Assembly (NCBI GenBank): GCA_035327825.1
Contig: DAOLCO010000004.1
Location: forward strand, 5,950 to 69,949
Length of the DNA: 64,000 nt
Source of the DNA: Oligoflexia bacterium
Lineage (GTDB): Bacteria > Bdellovibrionota_C > UBA2361 > SZUA-149 > DAOLCO01
Reading direction: 5' to 3'
In this document: positions 14,175 to 24,874 of the stretch, piece by piece
How positions within the stretch are numbered: position 1 is the stretch's first letter
Layout: each line of letters begins with the position of its first letter
Position numbers and translations under genes: made by a program
Notes under the pieces: model-generated
Database searches by the model: none
Seen by the model: only the letters and a program-made list of their open reading frames with translations
Told to the model about the DNA's origin: nothing

Positions 14175-15761
14175 ATGGGCAAAGTTAAAAAACAAGCTTC
14201 TTCACCTAAGTCGCCAAAATCACAGGCTAAAGCATTAAAGCCACAAAAAAAGGGTTCTAAAGCTTCTAAGGGTTTAAAATTAAAAAATAAAAAGCCTGAA
14301 AAATCTGTTTCCTCAAGAACAAGTGCTAAAAAGAAAGCTGTTTCTAAAAGTAATAATTCCAAAAAGGGTATTTCCAGCAAAAAGACCAAGGTTGCAGTAT
14401 CTTCCAGCCTAAAAAAGGGGGAGAAACAAAAGTCTGCCGTGAAGTCTACAGTTAAGCCTGCTAGTAATCCTGCTGGGAAGTCTAAAGTAAAATCTGCATT
14501 TGCCTCTGTTGGGAATTATAAGGATAAAAAGATTAATGCCAAGAAAGATCTTAAATCCCAATCATCAAAGTCTACCAAATCTCTCTCGACAGCTTCAAGT
14601 GTAAAGAGTTCAGTTAAATCTGAAAATTCAAAATCAAATAAATCTTCTATTAAAAAGACTGGTAGCCTTGGTGTAAGTAGTGTAGACTTCAGCACCTTCA
14701 AAGGAAGGGGTTCATCCACTCGTAAAGAAGCAGTTGGTGGACAGTTAACCGTTTCGGGAAATAAAGATAATATTATGCCTTTAAAGTCATCTGCTGATAA
14801 CAAATCTGATTCTTCAGAGGTAAATAACAAGCCTTTACTTTTATCAGCTAATGATGGGGCTCCTGCTGATGAGCCGATAAAGAGAAAACGGGGCAGACCT
14901 AGAAAGACCGATTCCTCTGGATCATCTGCTAATAAACTACAGGAAACAAAAGGAGTTCGGCGATTTGGTATGAACTATGGTAGGCCTGGTGTTGCCGCAG
15001 GCAGATACTCCTGGAGTGCAGAAACAGGAACTTCCCTTGTAGACAAACCAGCCAGTGAGAATAATTCATTACGCGGCAGTTCAAAATCGGAAATATCTTC
15101 TGATAACATTTATTCTTCAAACGGACGCTTTGAAACAAATGGCAAGTCTGCAACTGGTACTATTAATGGTCATTCAAGCAGAAGCAGAAAGGGCCTTAGC
15201 TCACAAATCACTGTTAGTAATAATTATAGTGATGAGGGTCTTGCAAATGGAGATTCTTCCGACGAAATCCCGATGATTGAGTTTATACAAGGCGATAAGG
15301 TGGTGTATCCGGCACATGGGTTGGGTAAAATAGATGCCGTACAGGTTCGAAATGTTGGTGGTACCCAGCAAAAATTTTATATGATTGTTATTGTTGAAAC
15401 TGGTATGAAGATAATGGTACCAGTAAGTCAGGCAAGAACAGTTGGTCTTAGGCGAGTTGTTGACACTGGTACTGTTGACAAAGTCTATGATATTCTTCGT
15501 GACAAGAATGTGGCCATAGACAATCAGACCTGGAATAGGAGATACAGGGAATATTCCCAGAAAATCAAAACAGGTTCGGTACTTGAAATTGCATCTGTTA
15601 TCAGGGATTTAACAGTACTAAAGATAGAGAAAGAACTTTCCTTTAATGAAAGACGTATGCTTGATACTGCTCAGGGTCTTTTAGTGAAAGAGCTTTCAAT
15701 AGCTAAATCAAGCTCTGAGGACAGCATAAAGGAAGAACTTGAGTTAATCTGTCAGCCTTGA
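14175..15761 (+). CDS. CarD/CdnL-family RNA-polymerase-interacting regulator with N-terminal histone-H1-like K/S-rich tail and an AT-hook
   Basis: C-terminal ~170 aa carries the CarD_CdnL_TRCF signature (FIQGDKVVYPAHGLGKIDAV...). N-terminal ~350 aa is K/S/A-rich low complexity with KRKRGRPRKT at ~14877-14906. Confidence 0.75.
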   Translation: MGKVKKQASSPKSPKSQAKALKPQKKGSKASKGLKLKNKKPEKSVSSRTSAKKKAVSKSNNSKKGISSKKTKVAVSSSLKKGEKQKSAVKSTVKPASNPAGKSKVKSAFASVGNYKDKKINAKKDLKSQSSKSTKSLSTASSVKSSVKSENSKSNKSSIKKTGSLGVSSVDFSTFKGRGSSTRKEAVGGQLTVSGNKDNIMPLKSSADNKSDSSEVNNKPLLLSANDGAPADEPIKRKRGRPRKTDSSGSSANKLQETKGVRRFGMNYGRPGVAAGRYSWSAETGTSLVDKPASENNSLRGSSKSEISSDNIYSSNGRFETNGKSATGTINGHSSRSRKGLSSQITVSNNYSDEGLANGDSSDEIPMIEFIQGDKVVYPAHGLGKIDAVQVRNVGGTQQKFYMIVIVETGMKIMVPVSQARTVGLRRVVDTGTVDKVYDILRDKNVAIDNQTWNRRYREYSQKIKTGSVLEIASVIRDLTVLKIEKELSFNERRMLDTAQGLLVKELSIAKSSSEDSIKEELELICQP

Positions 15762-16674: not shown

Positions 16675-17031
16675 TTAACCTTGATCCGGACTGTTTTCGT
16701 CGCTGGTATTTTCGCTCATATTCTGAGAATAAAGTTTGTTATACCGATCTTCTGAAAGAAATACATCAAAAGGAATAGCAGAGGCTGCCGCTCCAAAGTT
16801 ATTTTTGATTTCTTCCAGCTTTTTCTCAGACAAATTGCCTTTTCCGCGCCTTAGTTCGGACGCATAACAAGGAGAAATTCCAAACTCTTTTGCGATAAAG
16901 GCATCGAGAATACCTTCTTTGGTTGGCACTCTGTATCCGGGCTTCTTAAATCTGAAAATACCACGAAAACATAGCAGTCTTCGTTCTTTATGCAATTCAC
17001 TTGAAGGTGGAGCTCTCTTTTTCTTACTCAT
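16675..17031 (-). CDS. small basic hypothetical protein, possible HTH DNA-binding
   Basis: Likely start at MSKKKR; the ORF track extends to 17085. ILDAFIAKEFGISPCYASELRRGKG looks helix-turn-helix-like. No family recognised. Confidence 0.35.
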   Translation of the reverse strand: MSKKKRAPPSSELHKERRLLCFRGIFRFKKPGYRVPTKEGILDAFIAKEFGISPCYASELRRGKGNLSEKKLEEIKNNFGAAASAIPFDVFLSEDRYNKLYSQNMSENTSDENSPDQG

Positions 17032-17161
17032 TATAAAATACCTAAAAAAACCATGGAACTCTTTCCATCCATACTTTTCACTCAAAAAAAGTCAAAATTA
17101 TGTATTAAAAAGAAACAGGTGACATCCCTTTCACCTTTGAAAAACATTTAGACACAAATTC

Positions 17162-17887
17162 CTACATTTTGGAAAGTAATCTCTTTACATGACTAAGACG
17201 TAACTCGAGATTGGTCAGTTCCTGTCGTAGTATTGAGACTTTTTCGCTAATATCTGAAATATCAACTTCCTTAATCTCAGGTGCAGCAAGAACCACTTTT
17301 GCCAGTCCAGGCAGTTTTTCTTTCAGCTCATCTGGTAAAGGTATTGAGTCATTATGCGAACTTCCAAGTAACTGAAAGAAAATTGCCCAAAGCTCAATTA
17401 ATGAAAACTCGGCAGCTCCTGATAAAGAAAGATCAGAAAGCCAGAGATTTTCTCCTTCACTTCGAATAAATGCGTTCTTTCCAACAAGGATACCATCTGG
17501 TGACGTTTCAAATGGTGGATCAAAGATACTTTTTGATGGCGTAATTTCCTTAACAAACTCAGAATGAAGAAGAGTTCTTGCAGCTTGTATCAGGAATTTA
17601 TTTGTCATGTTCTGAAACGGAAGCCAGTATCCTGGAGCAAGCTCTCCTTGAAGACCCGGAATGTTACATGTTTTGAATGCATCAAATTCATGCCGAGCGG
17701 ATTGAAGCAAAAGAAAAAGCTCATTTGGATTTAGTCGCAGGGGATCATTCTCATCGTAAGCAAATTCAAGGTCTTCATAAGAGTCTCCTTGAATTATAGA
17801 TTCCACGATTTTGTATCCTGAACTTTTACTCTGAACAAGTGCAAGAGCCCGATCATCGTCTAAGTCGACAAATGAAATTGGAGTCAT
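17162..17887 (-). CDS. hypothetical protein (island gene E)
   Basis: Clean 241-aa ORF with no recognisable motifs. A hairpin (17951-17987) separates it from the upstream GHKL gene. Confidence 0.5.
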   Translation of the reverse strand: MTPISFVDLDDDRALALVQSKSSGYKIVESIIQGDSYEDLEFAYDENDPLRLNPNELFLLLQSARHEFDAFKTCNIPGLQGELAPGYWLPFQNMTNKFLIQAARTLLHSEFVKEITPSKSIFDPPFETSPDGILVGKNAFIRSEGENLWLSDLSLSGAAEFSLIELWAIFFQLLGSSHNDSIPLPDELKEKLPGLAKVVLAAPEIKEVDISDISEKVSILRQELTNLELRLSHVKRLLSKM

Positions 17888-17940: not shown

Positions 17941-17987
17941 TATATAAAAGGGCGAGATGCGGTTAATATCTAAAACCTCATCTCGCC
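17941..17987 (-). terminator. hairpin (GGCGAGATG / CATCTCGCC, 19-nt loop) followed by CUUUUAUAUA on the minus strand
   Basis: 9-bp perfect inverted repeat 75 bp downstream of the GHKL ATPase stop. The loop is large, so only moderate confidence as an intrinsic terminator. Confidence 0.4.
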
Positions 17988-18025: not shown

Positions 18026-19576
18026 CTATTGACCCTTCTTTTTCTTGTTCCTGTGCAAAGTAATCTGCCGTTGTGTCGGAAGCTTGATCCGCCCGTGAGT
18101 GAACCAAAGTAGCACCGAAGGATGCTCTATACAGTTTACAAGGATTGGGAGAGGAGGGAACTCGCCATCGTGGAGAGCTCCGTATCTGCTGATCTGGCTT
18201 AGTACCTCGATAGCGAGAAGAGCCTTTGCTAGTTCTCTCTTTTCATTGCTTCTTCCGCATTCTTCGAAGATAGTTTTCACTGGTCCATATGATTCATTAA
18301 TTGTAATCAATCGAGGATTAGCAACAATAGGATCATTCTCCTGACCGTCTCGCTGGAAAACAATCTTGGGCGGAGTCTTTGTTTTTCTTCCAGTACCAGG
18401 AGGATTTTTAGGGGGCTTTTTACCACCTTTACCTCCACCTTTTCCACCTCGATGTCCATCGTCTTCGTCGTCGTCACCCTCTTCGGAGGTTTTTTTTCGA
18501 CCACCGCCAAGGGTCAGTTCAAACTCGTCAATTAAATAATCGAGCAAGTCCTGATGAATGACGTCGTCAACATGCATTGCATTGTATGCATCCAGAAATT
18601 CATGAAGAGATTCAGGCAGATCTTCTGCAACGATCTCTGAAGCCACGGTATCATCGAAACCGGTTATCTTACTCCTGAATATATCGAATTTAAAGCCTTT
18701 AACAGCCTCAATAATGAGGATTACCTCAGACTGACCGCAGTAGATTCCCGCGGTGTTGACCTTGGCAATTCCACCTCTGTGACTATCCCACCACTCTACA
18801 CACTCTCCATCGGCAGCAAAGCTAAAAGGTGGTGCACTCCATGGACTTACGAGTTCACTTTGCCTTCGGCTTGCCTTTTGAGGACGAATCCCCCAATGAA
18901 GATTAAAAGCTGGACAGGTCGTAGTGCCTTTATAGGCTTTGGTCCCGTTGACCTCGCAAAGAGCTTTGAGAGAGCCAAGGGCACCTACGATCCGAATCTC
19001 TGAACTTCTATCAACGGCGGTAACAACAACCTCGCCAGGAATTGAGAGGTAACGTTGATTCAGAAACTCAATTATCTTCGTTATGCTAAAATTAGCACTC
19101 TTAAGGTGAACTGAAGTGCCTGAGCGCTTATCGAGGGAATCACGTGGAATTGAAACAAATTTTCCAACTCCGTGCTCCGTATCGGGAAGACCCTCAAAGT
19201 GCGTACCATCATCTGTAGCTTTCAGGATGATCTGATAAGCCTGATTATTTTCAGGCGACCTTTGGCAGTGGCTTGTGAATACTGCAGGACCACAAAGGGC
19301 ACTTGCAATCTTGGAGCCGATTCCCATTCTTTGGGCTGCTCCTCTTCCCAATTTACTGGAGCTAGATCCAAGTCCAGTCAGATAAAGGCGCATTTCCTTT
19401 GGAGTCATTCCTTTTCCATTGTCCCGAATCAGGATACCGCCAGATGGGTGTTCTTCAATCCGAACACATGTTGCACCACCGTCGATGGCATTTTGTACCA
19501 TCTCTCGGATTGCAATTAGCGGGTCAATGTCTTCGGGAAGAAGAAATGCCGCAGAAACCAGGTTAAGCTTAGCCAT
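18026..19576 (-). CDS. GHKL/Bergerat-fold ATPase (HATPase_c_3; MORC/Hsp90/MutL-like) with disordered G/K/D-rich linker
   Basis: N-terminal motifs EMVQNAIDGGAT (N-box), IRDNGKGMT (G1) and MGIGSKIAS (G2). C-terminal GGGRKKTSEEGDDDEDDGHRGGKGGGKGGKKPPKNPPGTGRKTK linker. Possibly GC-elevated: ~41-51% in four hand-counted 100-nt windows. Confidence 0.75.
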   Translation of the reverse strand: MAKLNLVSAAFLLPEDIDPLIAIREMVQNAIDGGATCVRIEEHPSGGILIRDNGKGMTPKEMRLYLTGLGSSSSKLGRGAAQRMGIGSKIASALCGPAVFTSHCQRSPENNQAYQIILKATDDGTHFEGLPDTEHGVGKFVSIPRDSLDKRSGTSVHLKSANFSITKIIEFLNQRYLSIPGEVVVTAVDRSSEIRIVGALGSLKALCEVNGTKAYKGTTTCPAFNLHWGIRPQKASRRQSELVSPWSAPPFSFAADGECVEWWDSHRGGIAKVNTAGIYCGQSEVILIIEAVKGFKFDIFRSKITGFDDTVASEIVAEDLPESLHEFLDAYNAMHVDDVIHQDLLDYLIDEFELTLGGGRKKTSEEGDDDEDDGHRGGKGGGKGGKKPPKNPPGTGRKTKTPPKIVFQRDGQENDPIVANPRLITINESYGPVKTIFEECGRSNEKRELAKALLAIEVLSQISRYGALHDGEFPPLPILVNCIEHPSVLLWFTHGRIKLPTQRQITLHRNKKKKGQ

Positions 19577-19589
19577 TTAAGGCCTCCAT

Positions 19590-19698
19590 ATTTAAAAACA
19601 GGAAAAAACGCTTTTTAACCGCAACTCGCGGACACTTGATTTTTAGCTGATGATTTATAGAAAAAAGGTAAACACCAAGTGTCCGCGCAAAAGTTGCG
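19590..19698 (-). terminator. imperfect inverted repeat plus U-run, then GGAGG RBS for the GHKL gene
   Basis: GCAACTCGCGGACACTTG (19621-19638) pairs with CAAGTGTCCGCG...AGTTGC (19676-19697). On the minus strand it is followed by GCGUUUUUUCCUGUUUUU, with GGAGG 9 nt upstream of ATG 19576. Confidence 0.35.
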
Positions 19699-19831
19699 CG
19701 AATCTACCCTGTAAATAAGAGAAAGAGCGATTATGATTACGTTTTGTGATAAGCCGAAAAAGCATATCATAAAACGTAGCGTGTGGAAAACCCACCCGCT
19801 ACTTCGGTAAAGTAGCAAAAACCTAAATAAA

Positions 19832-20758
19832 CTAAGGAGTGGCAGGAGGAGAAAGATTCTGTTCTCTTGCCTTTAGCTCATTAGCCCAGCTTTGAAGTCG
19901 CTGTTGTCTTTTTTCTAGAAGGCCAAGGTGAAGAGTGATTTCTTCCTGATCCGGAGCAATACCTAAAGGACTTGATCTTGCTTTTGCTAGTTCAATTTCA
20001 AGAGCCTTATTTCGTTCTCGAAGCTCTTCAAGCTCTTGAAGAAGGGCAAGGACTCCTTCCTGATATTCGTTCTCAGATTTTCTGAGAGTTTCAATCAATG
20101 AGTTAATTTCCTCCGTGTTAAAAGAAGAAGTAACTGGTATAGGTTGAGCCGATTCTTCTTCTAATAACAAAGAAGGTTCTTCACGATTCAGGATAACGGG
20201 ATCAGGTATTCGAACTCCATCAATATCCCAGCAATCTAGATCATGAACAGGTAGCTGAGGGACCTGATAAATCCCCATTATAGGATCAGAAAAGAGGCGA
20301 ACTGCAAGTTCACACCAAAGATCAAACGATGCGTCAACAGTCCTTCCCTTACTACTTGTAAATTTGAAGTTTCCGGACTTGTGTCTAACGGTTATATGAC
20401 CAATCACAAGGGATTTTTCAGAACTACCAATGTCTTCCCAGGGATTCATTTTTTTCGAGATATCAATGCCCTGCCTTTTTAATTTTCGTAGAGCCTCCTC
20501 GAAATTCCTGATAACCTTCTCCTTGGAGCTGTTACCTGGATTAAAGAGATACTCATTGGTAGCAACAAGCTGATCAGGGACAAGTTTGTTATGATAGTTA
20601 AACCAAAGAACAAAATTGCACCAGCGTGCAAGAATCCTGATGTTCATTACAACATCTCTTGAAAATGTAGGATTCACTTCCCGAAAGACCCATGAGTTAT
20701 CAGATTCCTGCCTTTTGAAATGAAATCCGTTAATGGTCACATGCTCTTTTTGAGTCAT
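19832..20758 (-). CDS. hypothetical protein with C-terminal coiled coil (island gene C)
   Basis: 308-aa ORF. The C-terminal ~80 aa is heptad-like (LQELEELRERNKALEIELAKA). No known family recognised. Confidence 0.5.
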   Translation of the reverse strand: MTQKEHVTINGFHFKRQESDNSWVFREVNPTFSRDVVMNIRILARWCNFVLWFNYHNKLVPDQLVATNEYLFNPGNSSKEKVIRNFEEALRKLKRQGIDISKKMNPWEDIGSSEKSLVIGHITVRHKSGNFKFTSSKGRTVDASFDLWCELAVRLFSDPIMGIYQVPQLPVHDLDCWDIDGVRIPDPVILNREEPSLLLEEESAQPIPVTSSFNTEEINSLIETLRKSENEYQEGVLALLQELEELRERNKALEIELAKARSSPLGIAPDQEEITLHLGLLEKRQQRLQSWANELKAREQNLSPPATP

Positions 20759-20968
20759 TTTTTCTCCTTTATAGGTTAAAACCCTTTTTAATTTTCCACA
20801 CGCACATTTTGATTTGCAATTTTAAAAAGATAAAATCAAAATATGCGTATATTCGCTCTTCTACTCAAAGTAATAATTTTGCTGCAGATTCAGCCAGTTT
20901 ATATAAAACTGGGCGATTGAATTTTGTAATAAAACCGCCCAATGTATGTGAAAATTAACGAGTAGCTC

Positions 20969-22078
20969 CTAAGCTCGAATTATTTCCTCAAGTACTCTGA
21001 AACTTTGGTCTTTGAGATGAGGGAATACTGTTCCTTCCATAAAGATTTTAAGAAGTTCCATTGGCTCCAGTTGCCGGGAAGGACTTGCAACTTTTTCGAT
21101 TGACTTATGGACAGGAGTTTTTTCCTGTTTAAAGCTGACCAAGTCGCTATCCATGATTTGATTAAATGAAAGGATTGGATCTTCAATTTCGTTTGATCCA
21201 ATAATGACCAAAAGAATAAAGCCAAATTGCGAAGGTTCAAGGTTGTCCGAAATTAGAAATTTGCCTTCTGATGCAATGAAAGTATCATCATTTTCAGATT
21301 GCTCACTTCTTAGCTCATCTACAAAACCATGAGGCGTGATGTCAAAGGGAGTCTCAAGTGTTTCTTCGATTCGTAGAATGAGAAGTTTCCTCTTAATTAA
21401 CAGTGTATCATCTTTCGTGAAGAGAATATCCAGAGGGATTTGAAAATCAAAGAGTTCCAAAAGTTCTTCTGGCAACACTTCTCGAAAATCCGAATGACCC
21501 TGGTCTTTCAATTTTGAAAGTATATACTCACGAAGTTCCACCAGAGAACCGAATTCTAGCAGTTCTCCGCTCTTATCTTGTGCCAGTGATTGCTTTTCTG
21601 AAGGCTCACCATAGACCAGAGCAACTGACGAGGGATCAAAGAAGTAATTTTTACCCCTTATAATTTCTCCTGAGAGAACAACCAGGGCGACGTTTATCCA
21701 GTCAGTCCATGGAGCTGATCGAGATAAAATCTTCCATGGAAGTGAGGTAGATTCACGTTCAATAGTTACTATTCCGGAACTAACCTTTAGAAGAGTTCCT
21801 GAATTCACTTGATCTGTTCCAGATCTGAATTGAGCAAGATATTTTGCCTTTTTTAGAAATCGGCTCTCTAGTAACTTTTTAAAAAGAGTTAAAAGATCTT
21901 TGTGAGATAAGTGGTAAGTAGTATGTCCTGCGACTTCATGATAATCCATTCTCCCCCAATCTCGTCTAACAGTTCGAGACTGATACTCGTAAAACATTGA
22001 GTGATCATCATCGGATGTCTTAGGTCCTAGGATGACCTGGATGTGAGGGAGCTTGACTCCTCGTGGAGCTATGCGCAT
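20969..22078 (-). CDS. hypothetical protein (island gene B)
   Basis: 369-aa ORF with acidic stretches. No recognisable catalytic motif. Confidence 0.5.
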   Translation of the reverse strand: MRIAPRGVKLPHIQVILGPKTSDDDHSMFYEYQSRTVRRDWGRMDYHEVAGHTTYHLSHKDLLTLFKKLLESRFLKKAKYLAQFRSGTDQVNSGTLLKVSSGIVTIERESTSLPWKILSRSAPWTDWINVALVVLSGEIIRGKNYFFDPSSVALVYGEPSEKQSLAQDKSGELLEFGSLVELREYILSKLKDQGHSDFREVLPEELLELFDFQIPLDILFTKDDTLLIKRKLLILRIEETLETPFDITPHGFVDELRSEQSENDDTFIASEGKFLISDNLEPSQFGFILLVIIGSNEIEDPILSFNQIMDSDLVSFKQEKTPVHKSIEKVASPSRQLEPMELLKIFMEGTVFPHLKDQSFRVLEEIIRA

Positions 22079-22216
22079 TTTTAAATCCTTTCTTAAAAAT
22101 ATTATTCAATCACCCGTGATAAAAAAGGGTGCTTGAATCTGCAGCATCTACTCTTTATAATTTCAAAGATCAGCTAGTTTTTGTGAAAGGATGCATTTAA
22201 ACCTTTTTACTGATGC

Positions 22217-22262
22217 CAGACTCGGGGACTTGACGAATTGTCTGGTCCCCGAGTTGGCTTTT
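22217..22262. terminator. strong GC-rich hairpin (ACTCGGGGAC / GTCCCCGAGT, 10 bp) followed by TGGCTTTTT on the plus strand
   Basis: Perfect 10-bp inverted repeat with a 15-nt loop, between island genes A and B. The T-run is on the plus strand while the flanking genes are on the minus strand. Confidence 0.45.
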
Positions 22263-22279: not shown

Positions 22280-23230
22280 TTAAACAGTTTTTCTCTCGTT
22301 TCTTATCTGATGAACTCTCTTTCGGAAATTATTGGCATAAAGGCGTTTTCTTCCCGCCTTGCTTTTTTCCTGAAAATCCCTTAGTTCATCCCAAAGCTCT
22401 TTAAGGGTCATTCCATTATCTCCGACTTTACCGTGCTCATTTTTTGTCCTTCTTTCAATGTCTCGGAGCACATCTTCAACATCGGAAAGCTCAGTGCATT
22501 GTCGGATTGAAGCCAGAATTCTGGAGAAGCTTACACCATCAGAGTAGTATCCACCTTGACCTCTCTCTTCCAGAACTTCTTTGGTTTCTAGTGAAAGTTT
22601 GGGCACTCCCCTGGAAATGAGAATTTGATCAATACAGTGAGCAAGATGAGATGCTCCCCCAGCTCGTTCCATTAATTCGGTAACAAGCTTTAGCTCCTTG
22701 TCAATATCATTTGACATCTCACCAACCAGTGCTTTTAGTTCATCAAGTTCAAGCCGTTCTTTTGAAATTTCTTCTCGTTTCTGTTGAAGTTCAGCCTGAA
22801 TTTCCGAACGTTCTTTTAGAAGTTCAGAAAGTTCAGCTTTTAAAGTCTGAATCTGTTCTGCAAGCTTATTAACTTCAGCACGCTTTTGAACAATATCCCC
22901 ATCAATTTTTTGTTCCTGAGGGCTTGTTTCAATTTTTGGTTCCTGTGATGAACCGATTGGCAAAGTTTCGACAAATGAGCGAATCATATCCATGCATTCT
23001 GGCATGATACGACCCTTCAATTCCAGCTGTAACTTTTCGCGAAGAACGGATTCCATCTTCTCCGCAGAGAAACGTTCTGGAACCCTCGCTTCATGCTGTT
23101 GAAGAAGAGCAGAACGAAGATTTGCTAAAGTCTGCGCTTCAAATGAAGATACACTTTTGCACCATGTTTTTACCTCAGGTTGAGACAGGAGCCATACCAC
23201 CGATCCTAATACTTCCGGATTTTTTGTCAT
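22280..23230 (-). CDS. hypothetical coiled-coil protein (island gene A)
   Basis: Long central coiled coil (QKRAEVNKLAEQIQTLKAELSELLKERSEIQAELQQKREEISKERLELDELKAL). Likely start at MTKNPEVL; the ORF track extends to 23290. Confidence 0.5.
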   Translation of the reverse strand: MTKNPEVLGSVVWLLSQPEVKTWCKSVSSFEAQTLANLRSALLQQHEARVPERFSAEKMESVLREKLQLELKGRIMPECMDMIRSFVETLPIGSSQEPKIETSPQEQKIDGDIVQKRAEVNKLAEQIQTLKAELSELLKERSEIQAELQQKREEISKERLELDELKALVGEMSNDIDKELKLVTELMERAGGASHLAHCIDQILISRGVPKLSLETKEVLEERGQGGYYSDGVSFSRILASIRQCTELSDVEDVLRDIERRTKNEHGKVGDNGMTLKELWDELRDFQEKSKAGRKRLYANNFRKRVHQIRNERKTV

Positions 23231-23276
23231 TATATATCCTTTTTGTAAAAACCTATCCATTAAAACCAAAATGCAT

Positions 23277-23327
23277 CCTGCTCCAAACAAGAAAGTAGTA
23301 AATACTACTTTCCACTTTTGAAGCAGG
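23277..23327. promoter_or_regulatory. palindromic operator-like site upstream of island gene A, in the divergent promoter region shared with the sensor kinase
   Basis: Perfect 9-bp arms GAAAGTAGT-AAAT-ACTACTTTC (23291-23312). They are nested in an imperfect outer repeat CCTGCTCCAAA...TTTGAAGCAGG. An AT-rich ~280-bp intergenic region follows. Confidence 0.4.
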
Positions 23328-23605: not shown

Positions 23606-24874
23606 ATGACGATTAATAATTCCATATCAAATCTTAGCAATCAGCAAATTATCTTCCTTGCCGAACTACCAAGGTTCCTGAATTCAACTCTGGTCACGGC
23701 TGACATTATTGATATTCTGCTAAGAAAGCTTTGCCTTGAGCTAAAATGTGAAGCTGCAACTACATTTCTACTTTCCAGCTCAGGTATGGAACTTCGCTTC
23801 TGGGCCTCGCATGGCGGAAAAAGTTCAGAGCTTTCCGGTAAAAAAATGCCTGCTGATCAGGGTATTGTAGGTTGGGTTATTAAAAACCGGAAATCTGTTC
23901 ATGTAAGAGACGTTAATAAAGATGAGAGATTTTTTAAAACAATAGATAATGAAACGGATTTTAAAACCAAAGAAATTCTCTGCTCTCCACTTATAGCACA
24001 GGGAGAAAAAATTATTGGAGCAGTTCAGGTTCTTAATTCCCTTAATGAATCGGGATTTAATGAAACTGATCAGCTATTTATTGAACGAGTGTGCGACCAG
24101 GCATCTCTCGCAATTTTTAATGCCCAGCTATATCACAATGCAAGAAAATCAGCTCAGACTCTTGCTGAACTCCAGAGAAGAAGGGATGACCTGATTTCTG
24201 TTATCTCCCATGAATTCAGAACACCTCTTAATATAATTCAAAATTCAATTGAACTTCTCGGAATGAGTGATATTAATGAAGATATGAGAAATCAAATTGA
24301 GAGTACTGCAGCGAGAAGTATAACAAAATTGACTGAGCTGATTTCCCGGATGAGGGATGTTTCAGAGTCTGCTCCTGGCAGCACTTTTATAAAAAAAGAG
24401 AAAATATCCTTAAGTGAACTTTTTAAAACACTTGAATCCGAATTTTCTATAGTGTGCAGTGATAAACGTTCCTTAAATCTCAGTTTTGATATTAGGGAGG
24501 GTGCAGAGCATGCTAAAGGTGATAGCACCCTGATTGCTGTTGCTATTATTAATTTAATCTCAAATGCTATTCGATTCACCCCAGATGGTGGAAAAATTAG
24601 TGTTACAGCAAGTAGTTCTTCAGGACTTGTCAAAATAAGTGTTTCTGATTCTGGCATAGGTATTTGCGAAAGCAATCATCAACTTATATTTGAAAAATTT
24701 TATGAAGTTACTGATGTAGCAAATCACAGTTCAGGTAAATTTGAATTTCGCTCCAGTGGCCTTGGGCTGGGACTACCAACAGTAAAAAATATCTGTGAAG
24801 CCCATGGAACAGAACTTGAGCTTCAAAGTTCTATTGATTCTGGAAGCTGTTTTAGCTTTTGCCTTCAAAAATAA
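23606..24874 (+). CDS. GAF-domain sensor histidine kinase
   Basis: N-terminal GAF-like region, HisKA H-box ISHEFRTPLN, and a C-terminal HATPase_c domain. Confidence 0.8.
   Translation: MTINNSISNLSNQQIIFLAELPRFLNSTLVTADIIDILLRKLCLELKCEAATTFLLSSSGMELRFWASHGGKSSELSGKKMPADQGIVGWVIKNRKSVHVRDVNKDERFFKTIDNETDFKTKEILCSPLIAQGEKIIGAVQVLNSLNESGFNETDQLFIERVCDQASLAIFNAQLYHNARKSAQTLAELQRRRDDLISVISHEFRTPLNIIQNSIELLGMSDINEDMRNQIESTAARSITKLTELISRMRDVSESAPGSTFIKKEKISLSELFKTLESEFSIVCSDKRSLNLSFDIREGAEHAKGDSTLIAVAIINLISNAIRFTPDGGKISVTASSSSGLVKISVSDSGIGICESNHQLIFEKFYEVTDVANHSSGKFEFRSSGLGLGLPTVKNICEAHGTELELQSSIDSGSCFSFCLQK

Follow-up and report, generated by a model that had tools for sequence, protein, structure and literature searches.

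We report here on a gene, called gene B below, and on the small gene module around it in a 64,000-nucleotide stretch of an Oligoflexia bacterium contig (DAOLCO010000004.1 of assembly GCA_035327825.1, positions 5,950 to 69,949 of the forward strand); this whole stretch is referred to as the window, and coordinates are those of the window unless a locus name precedes them. Gene B encodes a 516-residue protein that almost certainly represents a new family of active GHKL+transducer ATPases, a rare and previously undescribed branch that fits none of the named families with which it was compared. At related loci gene B is accompanied by members of two further families, A and C, and a conserved A-B-C module very probably exists. 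GHKL+transducer ATPases such as MutL, MORC, SMCHD1, Hsp90 and the type II topoisomerases are ATP-gated clamps that act in DNA repair, chromatin silencing and protein folding. We tentatively propose, at a little short of an even chance, that gene B is likewise an ATP-gated dimeric clamp and the ATPase subunit of an accessory A-B-C module.

The reading frame opens with an ATG that follows a GGAGG ribosome-binding site at a distance of 5-12 nt (19588-19581). An earlier sequence-only reading of this DNA had picked out the N-box, G1 and G2 strings of the Bergerat fold. All three are present, as EMVQNAIDGGAT (residues 25-36), IRDNGKGMT (residues 50-58) and GRGAAQRMGIGSKIAS (residues 77-92), and in an alignment of 25 gene B family members (alignment A1) residues E25, N29, D52, G56, G85, G87, T154, W228, G277 and R301 are invariant and G54, M57, K89, N173 and G198 nearly so. 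As judged from the sequence, the catalytic and ATP-binding residues of gene B make up the full set of motifs I-IV that defines the GHKL (Bergerat-fold) superfamily, namely ExxxNxxD, DxGxG, a G-rich GxxGxG-like lid and a conserved T. The same reading had assigned the domain to the HATPase_c_3 group and not to the histidine-kinase group, and the Pfam scores bear this out: HATPase_c_3 matches residues 21-98 with 41.6 bits (E 1.6e-10; cut-off 25), whereas the histidine-kinase-type HATPase_c stays below threshold with 23.1 bits against a cut-off of 26.4. Because this score comes together with near-full-length relatives and with invariant columns in A1, the match to the GHKL fold is not a chance one. 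A protein identical to gene B is present on a 122-kb contig of metagenome assembly ENA ERZ794932, and its residues 1-277 have been deposited as 'ATP-binding protein, partial [Oligoflexia bacterium]'. Of the nearby genes, ispD encodes a protein identical to NCBI entries from 'Oligoflexia bacterium' metagenome-assembled genomes, and the PheS protein shares a 90%-identity cluster with such entries. The predicted layout of the protein is as follows.

18026..19576, minus strand: gene B, 516-residue GHKL+transducer ATPase, ATG start.
19097..19576, minus strand: strap and Bergerat ATP-binding domain, residues 1-160, from the conserved A1 columns (E25, N29, D52, G54, G56, G85, G87, K89, T154), the Pfam match over 21-98 and the MutL alignment.
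18509..19096, minus strand: predicted S5-like transducer and helical subdomain, residues 161-356, with the invariant W228, G277 and R301.
18368..18508, minus strand: predicted disordered linker rich in G, K, D and P, residues 357-403, with an acidic block followed by a basic block.
18062..18367, minus strand: predicted folded alpha/beta C-terminal domain, residues 404-505, with three strands followed by helices.
18029..18061, minus strand: basic tail TLHRNKKKKGQ, residues 506-516, read from the sequence; most family members have K/R-rich tails.

The structure of gene B was modelled with AlphaFold using A1 as the input alignment, which gave a mean predicted local distance difference test score (pLDDT) of 81.7 and a predicted template modelling score of 0.77; a single-sequence input gave a pLDDT of 33. 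Values below 50 are confined to residues 1-5, 133-135 and 358-399. The sequence-only reading had described about 300 residues as a middle region and had suggested looking for an S5-like transducer after the ATPase domain. In the model this region comprises the remainder of the ATPase domain, a predicted S5-like transducer and a helical subdomain, and the second alpha+beta (S5-like) domain that characterizes the GHKL+S5 transducer ATPases is thus predicted for gene B. R301, invariant in A1 and placed by the model in the transducer, is a candidate gamma-phosphate sensor. The segment that follows, GGGRKKTSEEGDDDEDDGHRGGKGGGKGGKKPPKNPPGTGRKTKTPPK (residues 357-404; 14 G, 12 K+R, 8 D+E and 6 P), had been singled out earlier as an unusual disordered linker. 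It is real and predicted to be disordered, but it is not peculiar to this protein: in 24 of the 25 family members a script located a low-complexity segment of about 40 residues at the equivalent position, enriched in G, P, K, R and S, and family linkers carry a net positive charge in 17 of 25. The linker therefore appears to be a character of the family, conserved in composition and not in sequence. MutL has the same layout, its ATPase module and C-terminal domain being joined by a disordered linker, and we regard the gene B linker as comparable to that of MutL.

In the family members the linker is followed by a C-terminal domain of about 100 residues and usually then by the K/R-rich tail. In gene B this domain is predicted to be folded (pLDDT 82-92), and its profile (alignment A6) has no match in the Protein Data Bank (PDB) or Pfam. 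No column of A6 is invariant, and this includes acidic residues and lysine. The lack of both a profile match and an invariant column argues against a hidden nuclease. Comparison of the same profile with families A and C and with the other orphan proteins of the window revealed no relationship.

In a sequence-profile search of solved structures, the closest matches to gene B were the N-terminal domains of MutL (E 1e-11), followed by the N-domains of HtpG/Hsp90 (E 1e-8), with no MORC protein among the top 60 matches. The likeness to MutL extends to the order of the parts, an N-terminal LN40 ATPase, a disordered linker and a C-terminal domain. In contrast to MutL, the C-terminal domain of gene B has only about 100 residues, contains no invariant residue and resembles no solved structure, and the gene has partner families of its own, A and C, instead of a mutS or mutH context. 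NCBIfam scores of 18-34 bits against cut-offs of 180-937, with matches within residues 15-77 (the best MutL model reaches 33.8 bits against a cut-off of 180, over residues 19-66 only), led us to reject membership in MutL. The only Pfam families found in the 25 members at E <= 0.01 were HATPase_c_3 and HATPase_c; the MutL transducer (PF01119) and the MutL C-terminal domain (PF08676) were not among them. Membership in Hsp90/HtpG was rejected in the same way, no Hsp90 family being matched by gene B at E <= 1 or by the 25 members at E <= 0.01, and the PDB profile matches to Hsp90 are limited to its N-domain. The charged linker of Hsp90 sits between the N and middle domains, whereas that of gene B comes after the transducer, and compared with Hsp90, HtpG and TRAP1 the C-terminal domain of gene B is much shorter. 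The profile check proposed in the sequence-only reading (here with Pfam and PDB profiles) placed gene B neither among the histidine kinases nor in the HtpG group, and the HisKA/DHp domain with an above-threshold HATPase_c that marks sensor histidine kinases was not found.

The motif that defines the S5 domain of MORC proteins, GhXhhpXXRhl (PMC2292703), occurs in none of the 25 family members, and a relaxed regular expression also found it in none; MORC membership was rejected. Compared with MORC2, MORC3, MORC4 and SMCHD1, gene B lacks the CW domain, the coiled-coil insertion and the hinge, and the coiled coil is found on a separate protein, A. Among prokaryotic proteins, paraMORC1-5 are characterized by neighbouring methylases, restriction-fold or HNH endonucleases or superfamily II (SFII) helicases, or by fused restriction-endonuclease-fold nuclease or TIR domains, and these prokaryotic GHKL+S5 proteins have family-specific C-terminal extensions and a sporadic distribution (PMC2292703). 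The gene B family shares with them the prokaryotic GHKL+S5 architecture, a C-terminal extension of its own and sporadic occurrence, and one divergent member, at locus L034, adjoins an SFII helicase. The defining neighbours are absent from the island around gene B (16.7-23.3 kb) and from loci L002-L010, L023 and L033, which sets gene B apart from paraMORC1-5 by description and not by profiles. One of these families, paraMORC3, is an experimentally active variant of Shedu (type I-D, VcSduA) with a C-terminal DUF4263 PD-(D/E)xK nuclease (PMC12137116); the gene B C-terminal profile has neither a Pfam or PDB match nor an invariant acidic or lysine column, and Shedu type I-D was rejected as well. 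No nuclease, TIR or Hsp90 domain was found in gene B, and PADLOC-DB 2.0 returned no significant model, the best match being TmtA (E 0.0018) over 42 residues. In a viral fold search, many models of rIIA, the phage T4 protein, match the ATPase and transducer part of gene B (E 1e-11 to 1e-8). Proteins of the rIIA type differ in their length of 600-900 residues and in their C-terminal parts, nothing resembling rIIB lies near gene B, and gene B has no sequence match in phage genomes. We conclude that gene B probably works like a MutL/MORC-type engine.

The family is small. Word-indexed searches of 5.8 billion proteins gave nothing useful with the single gene B sequence, and searches with the family or the family A alignment recovered no more than the query and unspecific GHKL proteins. 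The family emerged solely from an exhaustive HMMER scan covering 1.84 billion cluster representatives, with 73 matches at E <= 1e-3, among them about 28 proteins of 490-580 residues that match most or all of gene B; the best relative has 31% identity over residues 15-514 (E 9e-47). These near-full-length relatives are all metagenomic and share one architecture, and a metagenome scan contributed L023, a further full-length locus, along with four short contigs. Those members that carry a name belong to metagenome-assembled genomes of Oligoflexia and Bdellovibrionales. The family has presumably escaped description because it is confined to such uncultivated lineages, and its taxonomic range is uncertain since the neighbouring genes at one locus are labelled Alphaproteobacteria. 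In addition, two longer GHKL proteins of 647-684 residues, on metagenome contigs of low GC content (0.37-0.40; L024 169-2223 and L026 307-2250), align with the family profile along their ATPase and transducer parts (E 1e-36 to 1e-41) but carry insertions; they may represent a sister family.

The genomic context of gene B was compared on the contigs of ten relatives and at the one further locus from the metagenome scan, L023. Family A precedes B at L003, L004, L005, L006, L008, L009, L010, L023 and L033 (48-56% GC), and family C follows B at most of these nine loci. It also does so at L002, the locus of the closest relative on a 3.5-kb contig of 66% GC (hhalign probability 92.8%), so that A/B/C loci span contigs of 48-66% GC. 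Family A proteins have 350-540 residues and consist of an N-terminal domain of about 190 residues with the motif ILRD..T...RYxxPWL, an acidic stretch and a coiled coil; family C proteins have 200-300 residues and the motif LSDxRT...YxPFL. The two families share a motif region of about 45 residues (hhalign E 8e-4), and at L009 (11900-13567) and L023 (7764-9479) B is followed by a fusion protein of 555-571 residues that matches both profiles, which speaks for A and C having arisen from one source or sharing a docking domain. A second A-like gene follows B at L006. Apart from coiled-coil noise, Pfam and PDB comparisons returned no relatives of either family, and neither contains conserved residues that look catalytic. 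The sequence-only reading had stated that no cleavage, helicase or methylase partner is evident near gene B. This stands for the known types of partner in the five adjoining open reading frames that were scanned, but conserved unannotated partners, A and C, do exist. The chromosomal neighbours of the module differ at every locus, and no nuclease, TIR, methylase or helicase was seen at 11 of 12 loci. At L034 (6009-11214) the divergent member P0019 forms a tight operon with an SFII (ResIII/DEAD) helicase, orphans of 328 and 99 residues and an RNA ligase, with an SNase-domain gene nearby, in a stretch that looks like phage or mobile-element DNA; this locus is the sole link to the classical paraMORC-helicase theme. 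A compact arrangement is the operon at L033 (4505-10228) of a 754-residue orphan, A (403 residues), B (543 residues) and C (197 residues), with gaps of 2-15 bp.

L003 (7447-19499) has an expanded module of A, B, C and four orphans, two of them A-like, inserted between flaG and fliD, and its spacers contain long inverted repeats of CAAGGACAAG-type units.

In the window, gene B belongs to an island of 6.7 kb, a run of six minus-strand open reading frames without database matches between 16.7 and 23.3 kb. On one flank are pheS, pheT, rimI, a CarD-like gene and ispD, and on the other a GAF histidine kinase (23606-24874), a flgM-like gene, cmoB and a GT4 glycosyltransferase. The genes that accompany gene B are listed here.

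19832..20758, minus strand: upstream gene of 308 residues, probable family A member, by hhalign to alignment A2 and as the only window reading frame matched by the A profile.
17162..17887, minus strand: downstream gene of 241 residues, an orphan at the position of family C.
20969..22078, minus strand: orphan of 369 residues with a promoter-like box and a weak match to the A profile (E 9e-4, in a 5-sequence database).
22280..23290, minus strand: orphan of 336 residues with a central coiled coil (heuristic, 132-194); its membership in the module is uncertain.
16675..17085, minus strand: putative helix-turn-helix protein of 118-136 residues at the end of the island, with weak PADLOC matches to HTH_VI and Control_protein (E 0.02-0.04).

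The 308-residue protein resembles family A in its build, with an N-terminal domain of about 190 residues containing FSDP...YQVPQLP, an acidic stretch and, by a coiled-coil heuristic, a coiled-coil-like C-terminus (220-303). Its alignment with A2 covers 142 columns (hhalign probability 83.7%, E 8e-6), and the E value of the A-profile match is 8e-4. In the 369-residue protein we read by eye a possible copy of the A/C motif, VLSGEIIRGKNYFFDP, and the 336-residue protein has coiled-coil-type matches to SMC, LmuB and JetC models only. The helix-turn-helix protein is similar to a 171-residue protein encoded beside the closest relative of gene B at L002 (34-549, minus strand; 33% over 58 residues, blastp E 1e-3, phmmer E 5e-4) and could be a regulator peculiar to this sub-branch of the module. 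Beyond coiled-coil noise, the five reading frames adjoining gene B have no significant Pfam, PADLOC or PHROG match. The borders of the island revealed no integrase, tRNA, convincing direct repeat or att site, and the island no capsid or tail gene. The Rfam matches above the gathering threshold in the window are tRNAs outside the island; within it there are none, and the miRNA and preQ1-II matches there are at chance level (E 0.15-0.55). The GC content at third codon positions (GC3) of gene B is 0.40, compared with 0.21-0.33 in 18 other genes of the first 38 kb of the window, and the neighbours of gene B in the island lie at the top of this range (0.28-0.33). The value does not result from the glycine-rich linker, as GC3 without it is 0.41. 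This GC3, the different chromosomal setting at each locus and the 66% GC contig of the closest relative together suggest that gene B was acquired horizontally from a donor of higher GC content.

At most loci the genes of the module are 140-450 bp apart, and their spacers share a box of the approximate form GCTCTTT-N13-17-G(A/G)GTAGA. The regular expression TCTTT-N14-19-GTAGA has 15 matches in 178 kb searched on both strands (356 kb of strand), where about two in total would be expected by chance; 13 of the 15 lie directly upstream of module genes in sense orientation, and the two outside the module equal the chance expectation. L023, fetched later, has two more boxes, upstream of B and of the third gene, although its resemblance to L009 makes it only partly independent. 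Box-bearing contigs range from 38 to 56% GC. Judged by sequence and position, the box is a putative promoter. Its GGGTA-like downstream element loosely recalls, as we take it, promoters of the SigB/SigF type. It does not match TTAAG-N16-CCGATA, the sigma-28 promoter of attack-phase Bdellovibrio (PMC3627812), and we rejected this assignment. The corresponding features of the island are listed below.

19700..19730, minus strand: promoter-like box TCGCTCTTTCTCTTATTTACAGGGTAGATTC upstream of gene B, found by the regular expression.
19620..19699, minus strand: leader stem-loop of about 30 bp (inverted repeat I2; RNA fold -37.7 kcal/mol), followed by GGTTAAAAA and the ribosome-binding site.
22105..22173, minus strand: box CTGATCTTTGAAATTATAAAGAGTAGATGC (22173-22144) and leader hairpin (22105-22137) upstream of the 369-residue gene.
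20800..20873, minus strand: partial box TTACTTTGAGTAGAAG (20858-20873) and 19-bp leader hairpin (20800-20848; I15, z -3.5) upstream of the 308-residue gene.
19787..19816, minus strand: terminator-like hairpin and T-run after the 308-residue gene, by sequence reading.
17946-17987, 20905-20940 and 22221-22253: similar terminator-like hairpins after gene B, the 369-residue gene and the 336-residue gene, respectively.

The box at 22173-22144 scores 25.3 with the position weight matrix, for which it was itself a training site; apart from the boxes listed, the 64-kb window contains no strong site, the best remaining score being 16.2. The leader stem-loop of gene B starts right after the box and has a z score of -4.1, with none of 200 shuffled sequences being as stable. 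Nine leaders that we folded have stem-loops of about 11-30 bp directly after the box (z -2.2 to -5.4), and those at other loci lie at L004 9830-9960, L005 5530-5660, L006 4130-4260, L009 11818-11899 and L010 4991-5139 and 6910-7010; many leaders also have an AAGGTT-like box before the ribosome-binding site. Because the hairpin sequences differ between genes of the same locus, a common operator is unlikely. The hairpins have no Rfam match and could be mRNA-stabilizing 5' structures or RNase III sites. The boxes and leaders upstream, together with the terminator-like hairpins after the preceding genes, suggest that each module gene is its own transcription unit under a shared, module-specific signal.

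How the clamp would work can be outlined from what is known of MutL, MORC, GyrB and Hsp90. Binding of ATP by E25, N29, D52 and the G-loops would cause two N-terminal domains to dimerize through the N-terminal strap, and the transducer would contribute the conserved basic residue R301 to hydrolysis. The flexible and mostly basic linker would join this ATPase engine to a small, presumably non-enzymatic C-terminal domain and a lysine-rich tail, which together may anchor gene B to a polyanion, most likely DNA, and/or to the second protomer. A and C would dock on B through their shared region and supply target recognition or output. Dimerization, nucleic-acid binding and docking of A and C are drawn here by analogy with these better-known clamps. 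The different chromosomal sites and the appearance of horizontal acquisition make an accessory role the most likely one, so that the module would serve a conflict or genome-maintenance function and not core housekeeping. We rank an accessory conflict or defence-type role first, chromosome or nucleoid maintenance second and Hsp90-like remodelling third. We speculate further that A-B-C is a self-contained three-protein ATP-driven machine, in which a MutL/MORC-like clamp acts with two partners, one bearing a coiled coil and one small, that have a docking domain in common, with its own transcription signal (TCTTT-N13-17-GTAGA) and 5'-hairpin leaders conserved across 38-56% GC; this is possible, although we would not expect it on balance. 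If so, the module should have a sigma factor or activator of its own and a function, in a new kind of immunity or in chromosome/nucleoid remodelling, without a described counterpart.

Several observations weigh against the proposed clamp and its module. Neither B nor its partners A and C yielded a match to a DNA-binding domain, a nuclease or any other effector, so that the case for nucleic acid as the substrate is made from analogy and charge, and the gene B linker is only slightly positive, at a net charge of about +1 to +4. The assignment of the 308-residue gene to family A is moderate and depends on the alignment used, falling to a probability of 29.7% with a second one, and the 241-residue gene at the family C position has no detectable similarity to the C profiles (hhalign probability below 1%). 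The divergent member P0019 at L034 has neither A nor C beside it. The operon at L033 has no box, and regulation through the box is thus not universal. With respect to a conflict or defence-type role, gene B has no PADLOC match and no adjoining defence genes.

One rival reading of the role is that gene B powers a new defence system against phages or plasmids in the manner of the paraMORCs, with B as the ATP-driven switch and A or C as a cryptic effector or sensor. We consider this unlikely, though well worth keeping in mind, and as it concerns the role of gene B it does not conflict with the proposed clamp. In its favour, most GHKL+S5 families of prokaryotes have ties to restriction or defence (PMC2292703), and paraMORC3 is experimentally active as a Shedu variant (PMC12137116). 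The rarity of the gene B family, its patchy occurrence at variable chromosomal sites and the GC3 of gene B, atypical for the window, point the same way, as do the small helix-turn-helix gene, which weakly resembles control proteins of restriction-modification systems, and the L034 member beside a helicase, an RNA ligase and an SNase gene in a phage-like stretch. Against a defence system stand the absence of a PADLOC model for A and C as well as for B, the 11 of 12 loci without nuclease, TIR, methylase or helicase, flanking genes that are housekeeping genes and not defence islands, and the lack of catalytic-looking residues in A and C. The long intergenic gaps and separate promoter-like boxes of the module fit poorly as well, since long gaps and separate promoters are unusual for defence operons. 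An Hsp90-like protein-remodelling chaperone, with A and C as its co-chaperones or clients and a charged linker corresponding to that of Hsp90, is improbable in view of the position of the linker after the transducer, as in MutL and unlike Hsp90, the absence of any Hsp90 Pfam family from the 25 members at E <= 0.01, the better sequence match to MutL, and a basic tail and basic linkers that favour a polyanionic substrate.

Roles for gene B in MutL-type repair, as a prophage remnant or as a histidine kinase are all unlikely. A leftover phage gene, such as an rIIA-like GHKL protein in a degraded prophage, would fit the viral fold search, where numerous models of rIIA and of phage topoisomerase ATPases were matched (E 1e-13 to 1e-8), and the phage-like context of the divergent L034 member. 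We nevertheless give this origin very little weight, as cellular GHKL proteins match at least as well as these viral folds, tblastn of gene B found no match in 50,697 phage records or 72,556 plasmids, 2.9 million viral contigs gave generic matches to the ATP-binding motifs only, the sole PHROG match is weak (E 8e-5, residues 21-72), and the island has no integrase, capsid, tail or tRNA gene. A divergent MutL paralogue in mismatch or very-short-patch repair is marginally less probable still. It would account for the MutL N-terminal domains being the best sequence matches and for the common layout of ATPase and transducer, disordered linker and C-terminal domain, but not for the NCBIfam scores far below cut-off, the absence of PF01119 and PF08676 from all members at E <= 0.01, the C-terminal domain of about 100 residues with no invariant residue and hence no endonuclease motif, or the lack of mutS and mutH nearby; the family is also far too rare for a repair orthologue. 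The sub-threshold HATPase_c score and the genuine GAF histidine kinase 4 kb away might suggest that gene B supplies the catalytic part of a sensor histidine kinase or of some other GHKL protein kinase, a reading whose probability we regard as negligible.

Among relatives of the GHKL+transducer ATPases, those of prokaryotes have until now been connected chiefly with restriction and Shedu-type immunity, and the gene B branch is without those links. If the module is functional, it would represent a new output for the clamp engine and a compact three-gene system in which to study how such clamps are coupled to non-enzymatic partners, for which the compact operon at L033 offers a version convenient for cloning.

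Elsewhere in the window, at 14175-15761 on the plus strand, a 528-residue protein contains CarD_TRCF_RID and CarD_C domains (precomputed Pfam matches) and has no NCBIfam match; CarD proteins typically have about 160-320 residues, and this one is thus unusually long.

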